Source: Candidatus Woesearchaeota archaeon (GTDB taxonomy: Archaea > Nanobdellota > Nanobdellia > SCGC-AAA011-G17 > JACPIM01). Taken from it: a stretch of 44,983 bases of DNA. Both the position numbers and the translations under genes were made by a program. The DNA is taken from NCBI GenBank assembly GCA_964367445.1, contig CAYIXS010000001.1:19054-64036 (forward strand), given 5' to 3'. This document shows, piece by piece, positions 2,639 to 41,520 of the stretch. A model generated the notes under the pieces. That model was not told the origin of the DNA. It saw only the letters and a list, made by a program, of their open reading frames with translations, and ran no database searches. The stretch's first letter is position 1, and each line of letters opens with the position of its first letter.

Positions 2639-2701
2639 AAAAAATAATCAATCTTTTAAATTTTGTATTTCTTCTTGTAGCTCTAAAATTCTTGAAATTG
2701 C
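2639..2701. repeat. Right copy of the 63-nt direct repeat (contains the functional pfdA 3' end)
   Basis: See 1131-1193. Confidence 0.9.
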
Positions 2702-3055
2702 CCTTTTTAGCTGTTCTTCTAATTTCATTAATGATTCTGAAATTTCTTTTTGCTGATTTTCAATGATTAAATTTGCGTCTTTAATTTTTTTATTTATAAA
2801 AATATCAGAACCTATATTAAATAATACTTCTTTTGTATCTTTTAATACTGCTTTAGCAAATATTCCTTGGCCTATTTGTGAAAAAATATCTTTATCTTGT
2901 TTTGAATTCTCTAAATTCATAAGAGCCTCATTAAGTTTTGATAATTCTGAATTTTGCTGACTTAGCATGCTGCCTTGTTGTTGTAGGTTTTCTATATGTT
3001 GTTGAAGAAGCTGATATTCAATTAATTTTTGTTGAATCTCTTTTTTATCTTTCAT
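2648..3055 (-). CDS. pfdA: Prefoldin alpha subunit
   Basis: 135-aa coiled-coil protein. The central GQGIFAKAVLKDTKEVLFNIGSDIFINKKIKDA double beta-hairpin region is typical of the alpha (not beta) subunit. Confidence 0.8.
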   Translation of the reverse strand: MKDKKEIQQKLIEYQLLQQHIENLQQQGSMLSQQNSELSKLNEALMNLENSKQDKDIFSQIGQGIFAKAVLKDTKEVLFNIGSDIFINKKIKDANLIIENQQKEISESLMKLEEQLKRAISRILELQEEIQNLKD

Positions 3056-3672
3056 TTTTTCTTTTCTGCTTTTTCTTTAACTTTTTTTGATTTAGTAACT
3101 TCTCCAGTTTGCATTTTTCCTTCTCTTTTGTGCTTTGGTTTTTCCTTTTCTGGCTTTGATTTGGGTTTTTTTACTTCTATACCTAATTCTTTTAACTCTT
3201 TGATCACTACTTCTGTTGAAGCTTTTGGCTTAATTTTAATTTTTTTATCTAAAGTTTCAATATGTTTTATATTTGCCTTTTTTCTTCTCACTTGGCCATC
3301 TAACAAAACATAATTATTATCTATTATATCAACTATAACCCCTATTTTTCCAGCATCTCTGCCCTGTGTTTTGATTATTAATCTTCCTGTTTCTATTTTT
3401 TCATTTACTACATTAAACTTCTTGCTTATTGCTTCTGCTGTACAAGAATGGCATAAGAAACCGCCAAACATCCTCTCTGGTCTTCGCTGTACTTTTGGCA
3501 TTCTCCTCAAGTTAACTGCCCTCTCCCTTGGTACACCATGCAAGATATTTCCGCAATGGGCACAATGAGCTTGATTTGGTTTTCTTTTTCTATAGTGTAT
3601 AGCTAATTTACCACCAGGTAGCTTTACTTTAATTCTCTTAAAACTCCTTGTTCTGTGTGGTTGTAGTGGCAT
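3052..3672 (-). CDS. Ribosomal protein L34e fused in frame to ribosomal protein L14e, with a Lys-rich tail
   Basis: N-terminal ~95 aa: L34e (MPLQPHRTRSFKR..CAHCGN..CHSC Zn ribbon). Residues ~97-170: L14e KOW domain (GRLIIKTQGRDAGKIGVIVDIIDNNYVLLDG). No stop codon between them. Confidence 0.85.
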   Translation of the reverse strand: MPLQPHRTRSFKRIKVKLPGGKLAIHYRKRKPNQAHCAHCGNILHGVPRERAVNLRRMPKVQRRPERMFGGFLCHSCTAEAISKKFNVVNEKIETGRLIIKTQGRDAGKIGVIVDIIDNNYVLLDGQVRRKKANIKHIETLDKKIKIKPKASTEVVIKELKELGIEVKKPKSKPEKEKPKHKREGKMQTGEVTKSKKVKEKAEKKK

Positions 3673-3687
3673 TTTATTTTTTGTTTA

Positions 3688-4137
3688 TTAGTAAACTTTT
3701 AAAACCTTTCTAATTATGATACTGAAGATTACTGAAAATAGAATATAGCTCCAAAGCCAGCTTAAACCAAATATGATTTTAATATCTTCTCCATTGGTTG
3801 TAAAGGTTTCTCTTAACCATCCCAATATCAAAATAAGCGGTAAAAAGGTTATTAACATCGGTTTAAATATGTGTTTATAAGATTCCATCATTAGTGGGCT
3901 TAACTGTTTTTGTTTTTCAAGCATCTTTTCTGGACTGCTTTTTAAACCCTTAATTTCATTTTGTATATTTTTCATTTCCTCTCTAATAGATTTTAATCTT
4001 TCTTGATTCGTGGTAAATTTATAAATCAATGTTGTAAAAAGAGTTATTATAAAAGTTATTATCATCAAATTATATGGTGCACCTAGATTGATCGCCCAAC
4101 CAAAGATTAAATCAAAAAAACCACTTAAAAATGCCAT
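3688..4137 (-). CDS. DUF106 membrane protein (archaeal YidC/Oxa1/EMC3-like insertase)
   Basis: Three TM segments with a charged coiled-coil insert (ERLKSIREEMKNIQNEIKGLK). Conserved position directly downstream of secY in archaea. Confidence 0.75.
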   Translation of the reverse strand: MAFLSGFFDLIFGWAINLGAPYNLMIITFIITLFTTLIYKFTTNQERLKSIREEMKNIQNEIKGLKSSPEKMLEKQKQLSPLMMESYKHIFKPMLITFLPLILILGWLRETFTTNGEDIKIIFGLSWLWSYILFSVIFSIIIRKVLKVY

Positions 4138-17276: not shown

Positions 17277-17399
17277 TTTTTAGACTATGAACTAGAATCA
17301 GCGGCTGAATTTTAGGCTTTCATTTTTAAATAACCTTTTTTTATTAATCAGTAGGGTAAAGGTTTTGTTAGAATTAGCATTTATAAAGCTATCGAAAAA

Positions 17400-17465
17400 T
17401 TAATTTTTAAATTTTAGAGAAAAAAATAAAAGTTAGTTCTAAATTTTTTTAGGCGCCTACGGCGC
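17400..17465 (-). repeat. Conserved 3' module, copy A (AT-rich flank plus GGCGCC-TAC-GGCGC palindrome spanning the stop codon)
   Basis: Aligns with 40671-40735 at roughly 85-90% identity with 3 single-nt indels (hand alignment): ttaatttttaaa..agaaaaaa.taaaa.gttagt.ctaaat.ttttt.ggcgcct.cggcgc. Confidence 0.8.
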
Positions 17466-18201
17466 ACGGAAACACCCCGAGCCCCGCATACGAGTCCCGC
17501 GGATCCCAGCTGTAGCTAAGGCTGGCCCTATCAGAATCGGCAACGAACCTAGCGACAGAATCAAGCCTAGGATAGACAAAATAAACTGTTTTTCCTGGTT
17601 CATATTCTTGAACTTTTGCTTTCTTTGTTAGAAATCCTTGACTATTTGTTGATTCTAGCTCTGCAAAACAATCTTCTTCTAAACAATCTTCTAAATGCTC
17701 TCTTTTTAGTATTGGTCTTCCTTTTTTATCTAAACCTGTAATTGTTACTAAATCTAGTCCAAGAAATCCTTTTCCTTTTGGAAATCTAGCATTAAGAACA
17801 ACCCAACAATTATGATTTATAACATTAGCATAATCATTTAATCTTTTTCCTTCTATTAAATTTCCAGCAGCATCATATAAAACACTTTTTCCTTGTAAAG
17901 TATCATTAACATTTTTATAATGCGGCATAAAAATTGAAGGTGTGGGAACAAATAAACCAGATTGTAAAACTTTAACATTTGTAGGAATAAACTGAAAACT
18001 ATTAAATCCCCACATCATGGAAATAGCATAGTCTTCTTGATCTCCTTCTTGAACTAAAGCATAATTTTCCGGTTTTATTTTAGCTTTTGTTTGAAAATGA
18101 TCAATATGTTTAGGAAAAGAATAGATTCCATCTGGTTTTTCTACATAAACCCTATTTGGATTTGTTTCAACTTCTTTTCTTCCTATGATTTGAACTACCA
18201 T
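17449..18201 (-). CDS. Hypothetical protein with a GC-rich, adenine-poor C-terminal segment (cassette A)
   Basis: 250-aa ORF with no signal peptide or TM. TATA box ~23 nt upstream of the ATG. C-terminus ...RASLSYSWDPRDSYAGLGVFPCAVGA. No family recognised. Confidence 0.7.
   Translation of the reverse strand: MVVQIIGRKEVETNPNRVYVEKPDGIYSFPKHIDHFQTKAKIKPENYALVQEGDQEDYAISMMWGFNSFQFIPTNVKVLQSGLFVPTPSIFMPHYKNVNDTLQGKSVLYDAAGNLIEGKRLNDYANVINHNCWVVLNARFPKGKGFLGLDLVTITGLDKKGRPILKREHLEDCLEEDCFAELESTNSQGFLTKKAKVQEYEPGKTVYFVYPRLDSVARFVADSDRASLSYSWDPRDSYAGLGVFPCAVGA
17452..17573 (-). other. DGR-variable-region-like segment (compositional anomaly)
   Basis: Hand count gives ~62% G+C. On the coding strand A is ~12% and T ~26%. 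Run of NNC/NNG codons (AGC TAC AGC TGG GAT CCG CGG GAC TCG ... TGC GCC GTA GGC GCC), while the rest of the gene is AT-rich. Confidence 0.45.
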
Positions 18202-18216
18202 ACCATTTTTTTAAAA

Positions 18217-18248
18217 AATAGAATTTATAAATTTTTCTATTTGCTACT
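18217..18248 (-). promoter_or_regulatory. Conserved promoter block, copy A (TATA tttataaat at 18224-18232)
   Basis: aatagaatttataaatttttctatttgctact versus aatagattatttataaatctttctatttttact at 41488-41520. The TATA lies 23-26 nt from the ATG, implying a leaderless mRNA. Confidence 0.55.
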
Positions 18249-18268
18249 ACTTAGAAAAGATAAATATT

Positions 18269-21063: not shown

Positions 21064-22101
21064 TTACTTTTTCCTTTTTGTTTTCAATCTTTTAATGCTC
21101 TCAACATTAACATGTGTTTTTGCTAATCCCCAAGCAGTAAAAGCAGAAATAATTAAACCTACTGCTGTGCTTATTATAATAATATTATCTTTAATTCTAT
21201 CGCCCAATGTTTTTGCTGGTTGAGCTACATTTAATTTTAATCTTATATCCTCTATGTTTGATGTTATAAGGTTATAATTTAGATCAAAATCTTCCTGAGA
21301 ATAACGAACATATTCTAATTGTACTTTTTGTATTATGGTTTTTGTGTCTTCGATATCTGACTCTATGTTTTTTACATCGTAACCATCGGCTCTTTTATTG
21401 AACATTTCCTCTTCATAGTTTCTTAGATCTTCTCTTGCTTTAGATATCTTTAATGAAGCATCTGTTACATTAACAGATTTTTTCTCTTCTACTGGCTTTT
21501 TTGCCTCTGTCTTTATAGAAATTGTTTTAATCTCCTGCTTTATTAAATCTGATGCTGAAAATATCTTTATTATAACGTCTGCTTTGTCTTGAGCTGAGAC
21601 TTCTAGTAAAACATTTAGAAAATCTGCTTTCTTATATGCTAAAGACTCTAAAGAACTAAACTCTTTTGTTTTAATTCCCTCTCCTGAGACTGTTCCGTGC
21701 AAGTCTAATAATTCTTCTGAACCATCATTTTCAATTTGAATAACTAAATTGTTATTTCCTGGATATAACAAACTTGGAGCTATTGACAAGATTTTAACAG
21801 AAGTTTTTTCTATCAAAAGATATATTTTATCTTCACTGTTTGTTGTTGATTGTAAATCTGTAGATAAAAATTTAATTTCTTTTATTAAATCTGTGTTATA
21901 GTCTGAGATTGAATAGGAAGTTATGTTTTCTACTGTTGGCTGGGGCAAGGAAAACATGCATTCTAGATCACATTCTTTTGATTGCTGTATTACTTCTGAT
22001 GATGTGGAGTTTTCTACTTTTATAGAATAATCAACCTGGATTGCTTTTACGGCTGCAGTGAAAAGCAAAACAACTAAAAAATAAACAAATATATTCTTCA
22101 T
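21064..22101 (-). CDS. Secreted/type-I membrane protein, hypothetical
   Basis: N-terminal signal-like MKNIFVYFLVVLLFTAAVKA and C-terminal TM IIIISTAVGLIISAFTAWGLA plus a basic tail. Confidence 0.6.
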   Translation of the reverse strand: MKNIFVYFLVVLLFTAAVKAIQVDYSIKVENSTSSEVIQQSKECDLECMFSLPQPTVENITSYSISDYNTDLIKEIKFLSTDLQSTTNSEDKIYLLIEKTSVKILSIAPSLLYPGNNNLVIQIENDGSEELLDLHGTVSGEGIKTKEFSSLESLAYKKADFLNVLLEVSAQDKADVIIKIFSASDLIKQEIKTISIKTEAKKPVEEKKSVNVTDASLKISKAREDLRNYEEEMFNKRADGYDVKNIESDIEDTKTIIQKVQLEYVRYSQEDFDLNYNLITSNIEDIRLKLNVAQPAKTLGDRIKDNIIIISTAVGLIISAFTAWGLAKTHVNVESIKRLKTKRKK

Positions 22102-22136
22102 GTCACTTTACAGATACAAAAAGGCTTTTAAATCTT

Positions 22137-22643
22137 TTGAAAATTAATTTAAATACAAATAGAGTATATTTTAATATGGACTTTAAAAAACAATTTTTTG
22201 AGGATTGGGTGTGGACTAGGGGGCTTACTCTCAAATTTGTTGAAACTATACCTGAAGACAAATTTAATTTTTCTCCTGGTGGCAATTTTGGACATTTAGG
22301 AAAACAATTAAGACATATTGGGGCAGTTCAAGAATGTTACTTAGTTGGTTTTGAAACCGGCAAAATAGATTTTTCTAAAAAAATAAAAGATGTCAGTTTA
22401 GAGAAATCTAAGATTCAACTTGTTAAATATTTTACTAAATTAGATAATCGTTTTGAAAATTGGTTCAAAACACTAGATATTAAAGATTTAGATCGGGTGA
22501 TTAATTGGAAGGTGTGGGAAGACTTACCAAATCCAACAATTTCACAAGCACTGTATTATATGTTAGAACACGAGATTTTTCATCAAGGGATTTTACAACT
22601 TTATGCTGAACTTGCCGGATTTGAAACAATTCGTTTCTTTTAA
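22137..22643 (+). CDS. DinB-family (DinB_2-like) protein
   Basis: Four-helix-bundle His pattern (HLGKQLRHIG ... EHEIFHQG). A start at Met 22176 (MDFKKQ) is equally plausible. Confidence 0.7.
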   Translation: MKINLNTNRVYFNMDFKKQFFEDWVWTRGLTLKFVETIPEDKFNFSPGGNFGHLGKQLRHIGAVQECYLVGFETGKIDFSKKIKDVSLEKSKIQLVKYFTKLDNRFENWFKTLDIKDLDRVINWKVWEDLPNPTISQALYYMLEHEIFHQGILQLYAELAGFETIRFF

Positions 22644-22716
22644 AATTATTTAATATACTCTAATATTAAATTAAGCGTAGATTTATGATAAATTTAATTT
22701 ACTGACTTTTTTTATT

Positions 22717-23740: not shown

Positions 23741-23871
23741 ACGCCAGTAGTATAACGGTTTAGTATCGAAGCTTCCCAAATAAGGATTGCATCCTTATCA
23801 ACCTGCAAGAAAACCTTAGAAAAGAAAATTGGAAAAAGCTTTGGATCCGGGTTCGATTCCCGGCTGGCGTA
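23741..23871 (+). tRNA. tRNA-Gly(CCC) with a ~58-nt intron at or near the canonical 37/38 site
   Basis: Acceptor ACGCCAG/CTGGCGT. D arm GTAT-AACGGTTTA-GTAT. Anticodon arm GAAGC-TTCCCAA-[intron ~23780-23837]-GCTTT (CCC at 23775-23777). T arm CCGGG-TTCGATT-CCCGG. Confidence 0.8.
23780..23804 (+). other. 25-nt hairpin motif inside the tRNA-Gly intron (copy of the rpl3-rpl4 spacer element)
   Basis: ataaggattGcatccttatcaacct versus ataaggattCcatccttatcaacct at 16278-16302. The only difference is the central loop nucleotide. Confidence 0.85.
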
Positions 23872-40652: not shown

Positions 40653-40670
40653 ATTTAAAATGTAATCAAA

Positions 40671-40735
40671 TTAATTTTTAAAATTTATAGAAAAAATAAA
40701 AAGTTAGTCCTAAATCTTTTTGGCGCCTGCGGCGC
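40671..40735 (-). repeat. Conserved 3' module, copy B (AT-rich flank plus GGCGCC-TGC-GGCGC palindrome)
   Basis: See 17400-17465. In this copy the ORF reads 4 codons further (..GAKKI*). Confidence 0.8.
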
Positions 40736-41471
40736 TTTCGACGACTACCCGACCATCGGAAATCGAGTCAACAAGATTGTCCCTGTAGGAGTACAAATCC
40801 AAGTACCTGTCCAAGTACAACCAAGAAAGGCCTTCTTGTCTTGCATAAAAAGTTCTAAGTTTATTTCTTTCTTCTTTACTTAATTGAGATATTTCTTCAT
40901 CGCTAAGGAAAATAGGAACTCCTCTTTCATCTAATTTTATGAATCTTCTACCATTATTTTCATAAGCTAATTCTGGAGCATTGATAACTGTTGTTTGATC
41001 TGTTAGTTTGAGATTAAGGCCATAGTCATTATTTGCTTTTACTGGCTTCAATGGCCCTGATATTAGAACTGGGAATTTGGTTTTTTTAGCTTGATTTAAT
41101 AAACCAGCTATAATAGAATTATTTCTTTCATAAGAATCTTCAGGAGTTCTTAATACTAAAGCTAAATAATCTTCATAATGCTCTCTTAATGCTTCTGGAT
41201 TTGTTTCTACTAATGATTCTAAAGTTGCTATTGAAGCAGGAGTTATGCCTTGTCTGATTAATTCATAAAGAACAAATGGATTTGAACCTTGTGGTTCTTG
41301 TGTTTGCTCATTGAAACTTAGAACATTTAATGACCTTAAAGCATTATCTTTGTAATCTGCTCTTATTCTTTCTTGATAAGCTTGAACTTGTGCTTTTGAT
41401 AAATATCTTGCTTTAGGTAGGACTATTCCTTTTGGGATTACTGGAATTCCTACAATTAATGGATTTGTCAT
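40710..41471 (-). CDS. Hypothetical protein with a GC-rich, adenine-poor C-terminal segment (cassette B)
   Basis: 253-aa ORF with no TM or signal. C-terminus ...EGLSWLYLDRYLDLYSYRDNLVDSISDGRVVVESAAGAKKI. No family recognised. Confidence 0.7.
   Translation of the reverse strand: MTNPLIVGIPVIPKGIVLPKARYLSKAQVQAYQERIRADYKDNALRSLNVLSFNEQTQEPQGSNPFVLYELIRQGITPASIATLESLVETNPEALREHYEDYLALVLRTPEDSYERNNSIIAGLLNQAKKTKFPVLISGPLKPVKANNDYGLNLKLTDQTTVINAPELAYENNGRRFIKLDERGVPIFLSDEEISQLSKEERNKLRTFYARQEGLSWLYLDRYLDLYSYRDNLVDSISDGRVVVESAAGAKKI
40722..40834 (-). other. DGR-variable-region-like segment (compositional anomaly), copy B
   Basis: Hand count gives ~53% G+C. On the coding strand A is ~17% and T ~30%. 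Many NNC codons (TAC GAC TAC TAC TCC TAC GAC GAC TCC GTC GTC AGC GCC GGC GCC). Confidence 0.4.
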
Positions 41472-41487
41472 TATGGTATTTTTTAGG

Positions 41488-41520
41488 AATAGATTATTTA
41501 TAAATCTTTCTATTTTTACT
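41488..41520 (-). promoter_or_regulatory. Conserved promoter block, copy B (TATA tttataaat at 41497-41505)
   Basis: See 18217-18248. The TATA lies 26 nt from the ATG. Confidence 0.55.

Follow-up and report, generated by a model that had tools for sequence, protein, structure and literature searches.

How can two genes whose products look unrelated be more alike at their ends than in their bodies? The question is raised by a pair of open reading frames (ORFs), hereafter ORF A and ORF B, in a stretch of 44,983 nucleotides (nt) from a Candidatus Woesearchaeota archaeon (assembly GCA_964367445.1, contig CAYIXS010000001.1, positions 19,054 to 64,036), which we call the window. A first, sequence-only reading of this DNA, accurate in its coordinates and sequences, had noticed that the two genes share a promoter block and a 3′ module. 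It had proposed that gene bodies are swapped between constant ends, that a promoter-gene-terminator unit is mobile, or that both loci carry a shared regulatory, terminator or IMH-like element (IMH, initiation of mutagenic homing). The two genes are the following:

17449-18201, minus strand: ORF A, 250 amino acids (aa), predicted variable (target) protein of family A, directly upstream of the rpl3 operon
40710-41471, minus strand: ORF B, 253 aa, predicted variable (target) protein of family B

We conclude that ORF A and ORF B are very probably two target (variable-protein) genes of diversity-generating retroelements (DGRs) in a DPANN archaeon of 31% GC. A DGR works by reverse transcription of RNA copied from a template repeat (TR), during which bases are misincorporated at random opposite adenines; the resulting complementary DNA (cDNA) then takes the place of the variable region (VR) that forms the 3′ end of a target gene. 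The 3′ module would then be the invariant DGR end, composed of the IMH (CGGGGT in A, CGGGTAG in B) followed by a short GC hairpin with a three-base loop (tri-loop); the GC-rich stretch of about 40 codons upstream would be the VR itself, and the N-terminal ~210 residues of A and B would belong to different protein families. The ends would be more conserved than the bodies because very conserved TRs are the source from which VR, IMH, and hairpin are rewritten, or else constrain them.

Homologous Loci with Template Repeats and Reverse Transcriptases

The evidence that carries this conclusion lies in homologous genes on other contigs, designated here by L numbers. Homologues of ORF A adjoin a TR and a reverse transcriptase (RT) gene in L003/L020 and in L027. 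In L003, the A homologue (54% identity) is followed by a second target ORF, a 357-nt spacer containing the TR, and an RVT_1 gene. A 110-nt repeat is found in both ORF ends and in the spacer, and the mismatches between the TR and the two VRs fall exclusively on TR adenines, with A/non-A counts of 10/0 (P = 2e-6) and 17/0 (P = 6e-12). For family B, the order is a B homologue, then a TR, then an RVT_1 RT; it is found in L005 (49% identity), L014-L016 (77%), and L017 (75%), with A/non-A mismatches between TR and VR of 8/0, 9/0, and 12/0, respectively. The motif [LIV]GxxxSQ is the signature of DGR RTs in motif 4; the RT of the homologous loci carries LGNLTSQ as well as YVDD, and [LIVM]GxxxSQ is present in 120 of 120 homologues among the matches listed. 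Since a TR and an RT stand beside homologues of both ORFs, with adenine-only mismatches, families A and B are DGR variable-protein families.

These cassettes have features that deserve a record of their own. At L006:11060-11150, a B-family gene (P0044, present on 22 contigs) is followed by an adenine-rich TR (…aacaactacaacaacgacc…) with no RT, and RFC subunits come next. At L017:3798-4869, the DGR RT is split into two overlapping ORFs (210 and 158 aa), which suggests a frameshift or a pseudogene; the TR of L017 also has a non-A difference from the TR of L014.

Five of the six distinct DPANN DGR TRs are colinear with their VRs up to ACTCGAAAT and then contain a 22-32-nt segment absent from the cognate VRs, for example ttattgtctcaaagacgaacgag, past which homology to the VR end and the IMH resumes. 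This insert always ends in CGAG, which pairs with a preceding CTCG to close a stem-loop. It is found at L003:11831-11976, L014:5686-5810, L017:3660-3790, L005:11086-11215, and L027 about 3620-3750; the L006 TR is without it. The RT would have to skip the insert, or cDNA synthesis would have to start upstream of it. We found no such insert in the excerpts considered here of Paul et al. 2015 (PMC4372165) and Wu et al. 2018 (PMC5758913), the latter describing small indels only. The spacer between target gene and TR contains a conserved element, GG(G/A)CTACA(A/C)G(C)…ATTAATA…GCATGGAC, in A-type and B-type cassettes alike (L014:5540-5600, L006:10925-10960, L005:10965-11000, L003:11720-11745, L027 about 3480-3520), and it presumably belongs to the DGR RNA, ahead of the TR.

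Probable Variable Regions of ORF A and ORF B

Do the two ORFs of the window carry VRs of their own? We delimited the following elements, where GC3 and A3 stand for the fractions of GC and of adenine at third codon positions:

17488-17559, minus strand: VR-A, predicted adenine-mutagenised part of the variable region, codons 215-238, GC3 0.73-0.80, A3 0.03
17466-17487, minus strand: IMH-A, predicted invariant 3′ end of the VR, GCGGGGCTCGGGGTGTTTCCGT, with the IMH-type motif CGGGGT
40761-40832, minus strand: VR-B, predicted adenine-mutagenised part of the variable region, codons 214-237, GC3 up to 0.87
40736-40760, minus strand: IMH-B, TCCGATGGTCGGGTAGTCGTCGAAA, with the IMH-type motif CGGGTAG against CGAATAG in the TR

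In the last ~40 codons of both ORFs, GC3 rises from ~0.07 to 0.6-0.87, and this jump is present in 16 of 16 family members examined. It is due to the avoidance of adenine at third positions, where A3 falls from 0.46 in the body to 0.03 in the VR of ORF A, and from 0.55 to 0.12 in ORF B. Such a composition follows from the randomisation of TR adenines: scaffold codons of the VR avoid A, above all at third positions, and the variable codons are AAC or AAT. The TR of L014, read in frame, contains five AAC codons and one AAT codon.

VR-B differs from this TR by nine mismatches, all at TR adenines, and is identical to it at all 51 non-A positions (0/51 differ; P = 5e-6); the gene bodies of ORF B and of its L014 homologue differ at ~14% of sites. 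The validated VRs of L003 and L027 can be aligned with VR-A codon by codon. Compared with the orthologue of ORF A in L001, the divergence of VR-A at codon positions 1, 2, and 3 is 0.31, 0.26, and 0.15, the reverse of the pattern in the body of the gene (0.25, 0.17, and 0.30). Against the L027 TR, which is distant, VR-A has 13 mismatches at TR adenines and 11 at other positions (P = 5e-3).

The IMH at both VR ends is distinct from the IMH* of TRs of the same family (GG vs. AA): A-type VRs, including VR-A, carry CTCGGGGT where the L003 and L027 TRs have CTCGGAAT, and VR-B has the form GTCGGGTAG where B-type TRs have G[GT]CGAATAG. The two VRs are of different TR types, and their TRs would match GGCCTTTCTNGGTTGTNCTTGNNCNGGNNCTTGGNTTTGNNCTCCNNCNGGNNCNNTCTTGNTGNCTCG for B and GTCGCTNGGTTCNTTGC…CTCG for A. 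VR, IMH, and hairpin are clearly homologous between the two loci at the DNA level.

The 3′ Module and Its Hairpin

The 3′ module extends over 17397-17465 at locus A and 40668-40735 at locus B, with 88.4% identity over 69 nt and a single gap. A blastn-short search within the window gave it an E-value of 4.5e-14, the next match being a 16-nt AT run (E = 6e-4), so that the match of about 65 nt first described is borne out. The module contains a palindrome:

17453-17465, both strands: hairpin or cruciform A, 5-bp GC stem, GCGCC-TAC-GGCGC on the plus strand and GCGCC-GTA-GGCGC on the coding strand
40723-40735, both strands: hairpin or cruciform B, GCGCC-TGC-GGCGC on the plus strand and GCGCC-GCA-GGCGC on the coding strand

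Both loci, thus, have the 5-bp GC hairpin with a 3-nt loop that the sequence-only reading had described, and the oligo-U tract that it placed ~22 nt further on corresponds to a T-rich tract, CTTTTATTTTTTT, lying about 20-25 nt after the palindrome on the coding strand of both. What does not stand is the view of the palindrome as a non-coding boundary, since it lies within both reading frames and specifies their last residues (…CAVGA* in A and …SAAGAKKI* in B, with A-V/A-G-A in common), ORF A ending four residues past the hairpin and ORF B three; homology between A and B extends weakly into the GC-rich last ~40 codons.

The hairpin comes 8-11 nt after the IMH, and 16 VR ends (15 besides hairpin A) have GC stems of 4-8 bp with tri-loops. 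Covariation of the palindrome, which had been suggested as a check, is evident in compensatory stem changes across these ends (GCGCC/GGCGC, GTGCC/GGCAC, GTGGC/GCCAC, TTGGC/GCCAA, GCGAC/GTCGC, TGTGCGC/GCGCACG, and others). The loop is GAA in most VR ends, GCA in ORF B and L006, and GTA in ORF A and L027; the GCA loop adjoins a TR in L006, and the GTA loop adjoins a TR and an RT in L027. A short A-run followed by a T-run (A4-7 T2-4) lies within 2-9 nt after the hairpin in 14 of the 16 VR ends, whether coding or not, and may be part of the target site. The idea of a shared regulatory, terminator or IMH-like element was essentially right for the GC palindrome, which we interpret as the target-site hairpin following the IMH.

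One might prefer to see in the GC islands a structured non-coding RNA or an antisense small RNA driven from the AT-rich block and overlapping the ORF ends, or else to see in the flanks a generic promoter and terminator consensus. The islands (17428-17578 and 40721-40802) do stand out in the 31%-GC window, where they are two of only three, and the generic TATA box TTTATAAAT is widespread. However, neither locus has a tRNA or Rfam match (ARAGORN; Rfam gathering score), a search of Rfam by E-value gave only noise at both, and the 3′ module has no stable RNA fold on either strand (z-scores of -0.6 to -1.4). Moreover, the island encodes protein sequence that is conserved in the 34 homologues of A and the 10 of B, and the extended matches in promoter and 3′ module greatly exceed chance and do not recur at other genes of the window. 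We find this explanation hardly credible. From the ARAGORN and Rfam results we reject an RNA gene in the two islands, be it a tRNA, a split tRNA or another structured RNA.

Protein Families, Fold, and the Proposed Exchange of Gene Bodies

Family A has 34 homologues and family B has 10 close ones (Nanoarchaeota, Woesearchaeota, Pacearchaeota), an exhaustive profile search extending family B to 817 clusters at 50% identity; neither family has a match in Pfam, NCBIfam or PHROG. Both alignments show a short C-terminal hypervariable stretch between invariant scaffold residues, with the pattern A..S..A.L.C...P..S...LGVFPCAEG in family A and GLS.L.L...L.L.S....L..S.S.GRVVV in family B. The two proteins of the window look as unrelated as first described, without significant similarity in BLASTP (E of at least 0.77). 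Profile-profile comparison aligned only the C-terminal ~45-57 columns, with E = 0.11 and, over 57 columns with a deeper B profile, E = 0.041. The possibility that profile methods would reveal ordinary paralogues, similar throughout, is not borne out: BLASTP and two hhalign runs give a weak C-terminal match only. As judged by these alignments, the bodies of A and B appear to be unrelated or too diverged to tell.

The AlphaFold model of ORF A has a predicted local distance difference test (pLDDT) score of 93.7. Its Foldseek matches are weak but all point the same way. In the PDB they include TaqVP, Mtd variants, and C-type lectin domains (E = 0.14-1, target-normalised TM score up to 0.5); in BFVD, the best match reaches E = 2.8e-3 with a probability of 0.96 and is followed, among others, by phage tail fibres and viral C-type lectins. 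This model is only suggestive of a DGR variable protein with a C-type-lectin-like fold. No sequence match was found between the A or B profiles and solved structures, including the AvpA chain.

Unrelated N-terminal bodies between similar ends are what one would expect of a cassette system, in which bodies are swapped between a constant promoter and a constant terminator, or of a mobile promoter-gene-terminator unit. A-type cassettes, in which one VR type is joined to at least three protein families (A and at least two further ones), speak for it as well; they generalise the pattern of different bodies with the same end. Several observations nevertheless make such a system very unlikely. Only two copies exist in 45 kb, ORF A sits beside rpl3 in another species too (L001), and there are no transposase, integrase, att-like or terminal-repeat features, the window ORFs scanned including no recombinase or transposase. 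TR-directed retrohoming with adenine-only mismatches accounts for the common 3′ coding block, which recombination between constant ends had been invoked to explain. Finally, the two VRs are of different TR types, so that the "constant end" is not constant beyond IMH, hairpin, and tail. Neither the swapping of bodies nor the mobile unit of the sequence-only reading, thus, finds support.

Trans-Acting Targets or Fossils

If ORF A and ORF B are DGR targets, where are the TR and the RT? We place a cognate RT and two different TRs elsewhere in the genome, from where they would work in trans, since the window and the fetched flanks contained neither. This absence is compatible with a DGR target because remote and partial DGR loci are recognised (PMC4372165; PMC5758913; known systems are considered here from excerpts of the papers cited).

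The points that weigh against our interpretation should be set out together. An adenine-tolerant sliding scan with both VRs on both strands found no TR in the 45-kb window, its best match having eight non-A mismatches per 60 nt in A-rich low-complexity DNA. No RT was found in the window either, by Pfam on the ten largest unassigned ORFs or by tblastn with a DGR RT, and neither RT nor TR was found in 10 kb beyond each window end on shorter overlapping contigs (L009 and L012), which give ~14 kb beyond ORF B and ~27 kb beyond ORF A. In an RT search, none of the best 120 of 7807 matches has the locus-tag prefix of this metagenome-assembled genome (MAG), AABX29. One TR could not serve both ORF A and ORF B; two different ones are needed. 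In the 90% clusters, each protein stands alone and has no VR variants, as judged from assembled consensus contigs. VR-A has the 11 non-A mismatches to the L027 TR given above, which we attribute to the lack of a sufficiently close TR. The loops are GTA and GCA, whereas GRA is reported as invariant in the DUSEL4 Nanoarchaeota (PMC4372165). On the protein side, the fold matches of ORF A are weak (E of at least 0.14 in the PDB), and the model of ORF B is unreliable (pLDDT 58.6). Lastly, the origin and role of the 54-nt tail that ends the 3′ module can only be inferred.

Several of these points would fit fossil VRs, left in a genome that has lost its RT and TRs, whose shared ends are decaying and now function only in coding and termination. 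Besides the missing RT and TRs, the absence of VR variants on record, and the unusual loops, one can cite the mismatch in the L001 hairpin and the lack of an RT in the fetched flanks of 8 out of 10 A-family loci from species-representative genomes; Paul et al. 2015 raised this option explicitly (PMC4372165). On the other side, neither ORF is disrupted, the GG motifs are of IMH type, the 5-bp stems are perfect, and avoidance of third-position adenine is still extreme. The absence of any non-A difference in VR-B, against the divergence of the gene bodies, is hard to square with long neutral decay, and the GCA and GTA loops also occur in loci that retain a TR (and, in L027, an RT). We, thus, consider the fossil explanation possible but rather unlikely. 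The intact ORFs, IMHs, and stems, the perfect non-A positions of VR-B, and the extreme avoidance of adenine lead us to favour, with moderate confidence and from sequence considerations, that the VRs of A and B are targets diversified in trans today.

Comparison with Known Systems

A close parallel comes from subsurface Nanoarchaeota. Paul et al. 2015 (Nat Commun 6:6585; PMC4372165) describe Nanoarchaeota DGRs with TGGGGT in the IMH vs. TGGAAT in the IMH*, tri-loop hairpins inside the target gene, and RT-less "partial DGRs" composed of a target gene, a VR, and cis elements. According to the same excerpts, the DGRs of DUSEL4 OTU1 and OTU2 (OTU, operational taxonomic unit) share with the present loci a DPANN host from groundwater or the subsurface, a VR near the 3′ end of a target gene of ~250 aa, an IMH GGGGT vs. 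IMH* GGAAT, and a GC hairpin with a three-base loop inside the ORF, as well as several DGR types per genome and loci without an RT. Points of difference are that families A and B did not match the solved AvpA chain in sequence, that the loop is GTA or GCA here and GRA there, and that no RT was located for our genome in the window, the fetched flanks or the best 120 of 7807 RT matches. The 54-nt tail and the ~30-nt promoter block common to two RT-less targets were not found in these excerpts. RT-less DGR target loci were thus already on record for DPANN archaea, and the present locus is a new example of them.

AvpA, an archaeal DGR variable protein, has a divergent C-type lectin fold (Handa et al. 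2016, PMC5006420). As described there, it resembles the proteins studied here as a nanoarchaeal DGR protein of ~250 aa with a single domain, unclassifiable by standard profiles, with a short VR, a beta-strand encoded by the IMH, and, past the VR, an extension in whose DNA the hairpin lies. Its motifs GxxVVVYAH, HPxxxPFxG, and RFxGV are not evident in A or B, and its fold is solved, whereas that of ORF A comes from a model with weak Foldseek matches.

In the DGR of Bordetella phage BPP-1, whose VR lies in mtd, homing and target recognition require the hairpin, and what counts is its structure rather than the sequence of the stem (Guo et al. 2011, PMC3240598). From the excerpts of that work, common features are adenine-specific transfer from TR to VR, an IMH at the VR 3′ end, and a GC-rich inverted repeat just downstream; the primacy of structure over sequence fits the compensatory changes seen here. 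The BPP-1 variable protein has a fold of C-type-lectin type, a likeness that we approach only through the ORF A model and its weak matches. In BPP-1, however, the stem has 8 bp, a GRNA tetraloop, and a position after the stop codon, whereas here stems of 4-8 bp carry a tri-loop inside the ORF; avd and adjacent TR and RT are present there and nothing adjacent is found here; and the host is a phage in one case and an archaeal chromosome in the other.

Remote DGR targets, which lie far from RT and TR, as is presumed here, and retain VR, IMH, and stem-loop, are reported in Treponema denticola and Trichodesmium, where diversification takes place in trans (Wu et al. 2018, PMC5758913; Paul and Eren 2022, PMC8867640). 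In the excerpts of these studies, a TR of the same genome is known and matches the VRs, whereas none was found here in the window or fetched flanks and two TR types are required.

While the known DGR paradigm is unchanged by these loci, two "hypothetical proteins" of a groundwater DPANN archaeon would become recognisable as hypervariable ligand-binding proteins. The loci also provide a signature for RT-less DGR targets, namely the loss of third-position A in the last ~40 codons, CGGGGT or CGGGTAG, and a GC tri-loop hairpin, which flags such targets when RT-centred DGR finders miss them. Two target families are added, neither with a Pfam match, and family B is large (817 clusters).

A Promoter Shared by Target Genes

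The other end of the two genes is a promoter block:

18215-18251, minus strand: promoter block A, AGTAGTAGCAAATAGAAAAATTTATAAAT, TATA box ~30 nt before the ATG
41489-41515, minus strand: promoter block B, AGTAAAAATAGAAAGATTTATAAAT

Strict identity between A and B covers ~20 nt, AAATAGAAA[A/G]ATTTATAAAT. One has to keep in mind that the core of this block is the same generic TATA box that lies ~30 nt upstream of many window genes. The extended block, AGTAGTAACAAAATAGAAAGATTTATAAATAA, is common to A-family and B-family genes in several genomes, and the B homologues of L014 and L017 have promoters that are nearly the same as block B. When a profile built from target-gene promoters of other genomes was run against the 45-kb window, promoter B ranked first (E = 0.0036) and promoter A second (E = 0.037), the third match having E = 0.87. 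This ranking argues for a conserved target-gene promoter and not a chance match. The match noted by the sequence-only reading is, thus, real and specific, and its caveat that the flanks might be generic promoter and terminator consensus next to many unrelated genes does not apply, the extended matches being absent from other window genes. The block is, on this evidence, a conserved promoter of DGR target genes in both families, and its conservation across target families is documented here.

The 54-nt AT-Rich Tail

Past the hairpin, the 3′ module continues into a tail that is AT-rich at both loci:

17397-17451, minus strand: tail A, situated before the rpl3 promoter, with stop codon, A-run/T-run, CTTTTATTTTTTT, and an imperfect AT inverted repeat
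40668-40721, minus strand: tail B, with …AAAAAGATTTAG and the stop, then GACTAACTTTTTATTTTTTCTATAAATTTTAAAAATTAATTT, filling the spacer to the convergent Cdc6/ORC-like gene

Tails A and B are 88% identical. As had been remarked, the module of locus B fills the whole spacer, tail B reaching the convergent gene. The tail occurs at three places only, namely A and B of the window and the A orthologue of L001; other A and B loci lack it, whether they have an RT or not. It is a lineage-specific element, not a general feature of DGRs, and is unexplained by DGR biology. Between window and L001, tail A is 87.5% identical, as against 88% for the whole A-rpl3 spacer and 85% for rpl3, so that there is no evidence for special constraint. 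Exceptional cross-species conservation of the tail is ruled out, spacer and neighbouring genes being equally conserved. Tail A has no significant RNA fold and is the likely terminator of ORF A.

How did the tail come to be on B? The closest relatives of ORF B continue past the hairpin into a helical extension of ~30 aa (…EGAQENFRQQL…), which ORF B lacks: it ends …GAKKI*, like the A protein of L001, and the tail follows. The switch from B-like to A-like sequence lies inside the 13-nt hairpin common to A and B. The hairpin region ends GGCGCC in A and B of the window and in L001, vs. GGCGCG in L014, L021, and L003. On the simplest interpretation, the native 3′ untranslated region and terminator of A, including its T-rich tract, were copied onto B by non-allelic recombination or gene conversion within the 13-nt hairpin, which would have replaced the usual C-terminal extension of B. 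The tail of B is probably such an old recombinational copy acting as a terminator. It is not recent, because tail B is about as far from tail A of the window as from that of L001; a segmental duplication limited to two copies, which the sequence-only reading had kept in mind, agrees in copy number within the window but not in age. We, thus, have one concrete case in which sequence past the homing hairpin was exchanged between unrelated targets.

A bolder possibility is that hairpin and tail form a portable target-site module under selection, moved from A to B by the DGR machinery (aberrant retrohoming or a template switch) or needed in cis when homing occurs in trans. One route would be reverse transcription, or a template switch, that began on the A transcript and was resolved at the B hairpin. 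Indeed, the tail coincides exactly with the two RT-less targets of this genome and with the L001 orthologue, likewise RT-less, the B junction lies exactly at the hairpin, where DGR homing acts, and the A4-7 T2-4 tract described above recurs at most VR ends. In contrast, other RT-less A-family targets (L019, L021-L026) have no tail, the tail is conserved no better than the spacer and rpl3, it has no significant fold, and in BPP-1 the sequence just past the stem is dispensable according to the excerpts of PMC3240598. We regard the portable module as a distinctly improbable explanation. If it were true, DGR homing could transduce a 3′ flank and create or re-equip RT-less target sites.

Genomic Context and Other Features of the Window

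The window (30.9% GC) contains an archaeal ribosomal-protein operon and genes for SecY, PolB, RFC, FEN1, DnaK/DnaJ, and MetRS. Its proteins are labelled as those of a "Nanoarchaeota archaeon" MAG in NCBI, and identical contigs come from Hainich H51 groundwater. Both ORF A and ORF B lie in an ordinary chromosomal context: the position of ORF A upstream of rpl3 is syntenic in L001, and ORF B is convergent with a Cdc6/ORC-like AAA gene.

Elsewhere in the window, a match above the Rfam gathering score identifies a tRNA at 23741-23871 (131 nt, 43 bits), presumably containing an intron, which ARAGORN does not report. The 615 nt at 22102-22716, upstream of an unannotated 345-aa ORF (21064-22101), have no assigned ORF or Rfam match. 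A 68-nt repeat of 90% identity is found at 1131-1198 and 2639-2706 (also 2140-2166). Its first copy is non-coding, between ORF 207-1139 and an AAA_14/DUF4143 gene (1200-2504), and the second makes up the 3′ end of ORF 2648-3055, so that the repeat has the appearance of a gene-end fragment that was duplicated. A 69-nt direct repeat (1-69 and 337-405, 93% identity, 336-nt spacing) has one copy at the window start and the other within ORF 207-1139. The gene matching this ORF measures 772 aa vs. 310 aa in Hainich replicates (L013 vs. L012), which suggests a repeat-containing, assembly-variable gene of surface type. Inteins (Intein_splicing and LAGLIDADG) are found in CDC48 just past the right end of the window (L009:3892-7659) and in other housekeeping genes of related DPANN contigs (L006:15914-18340; L014:3100-4581).

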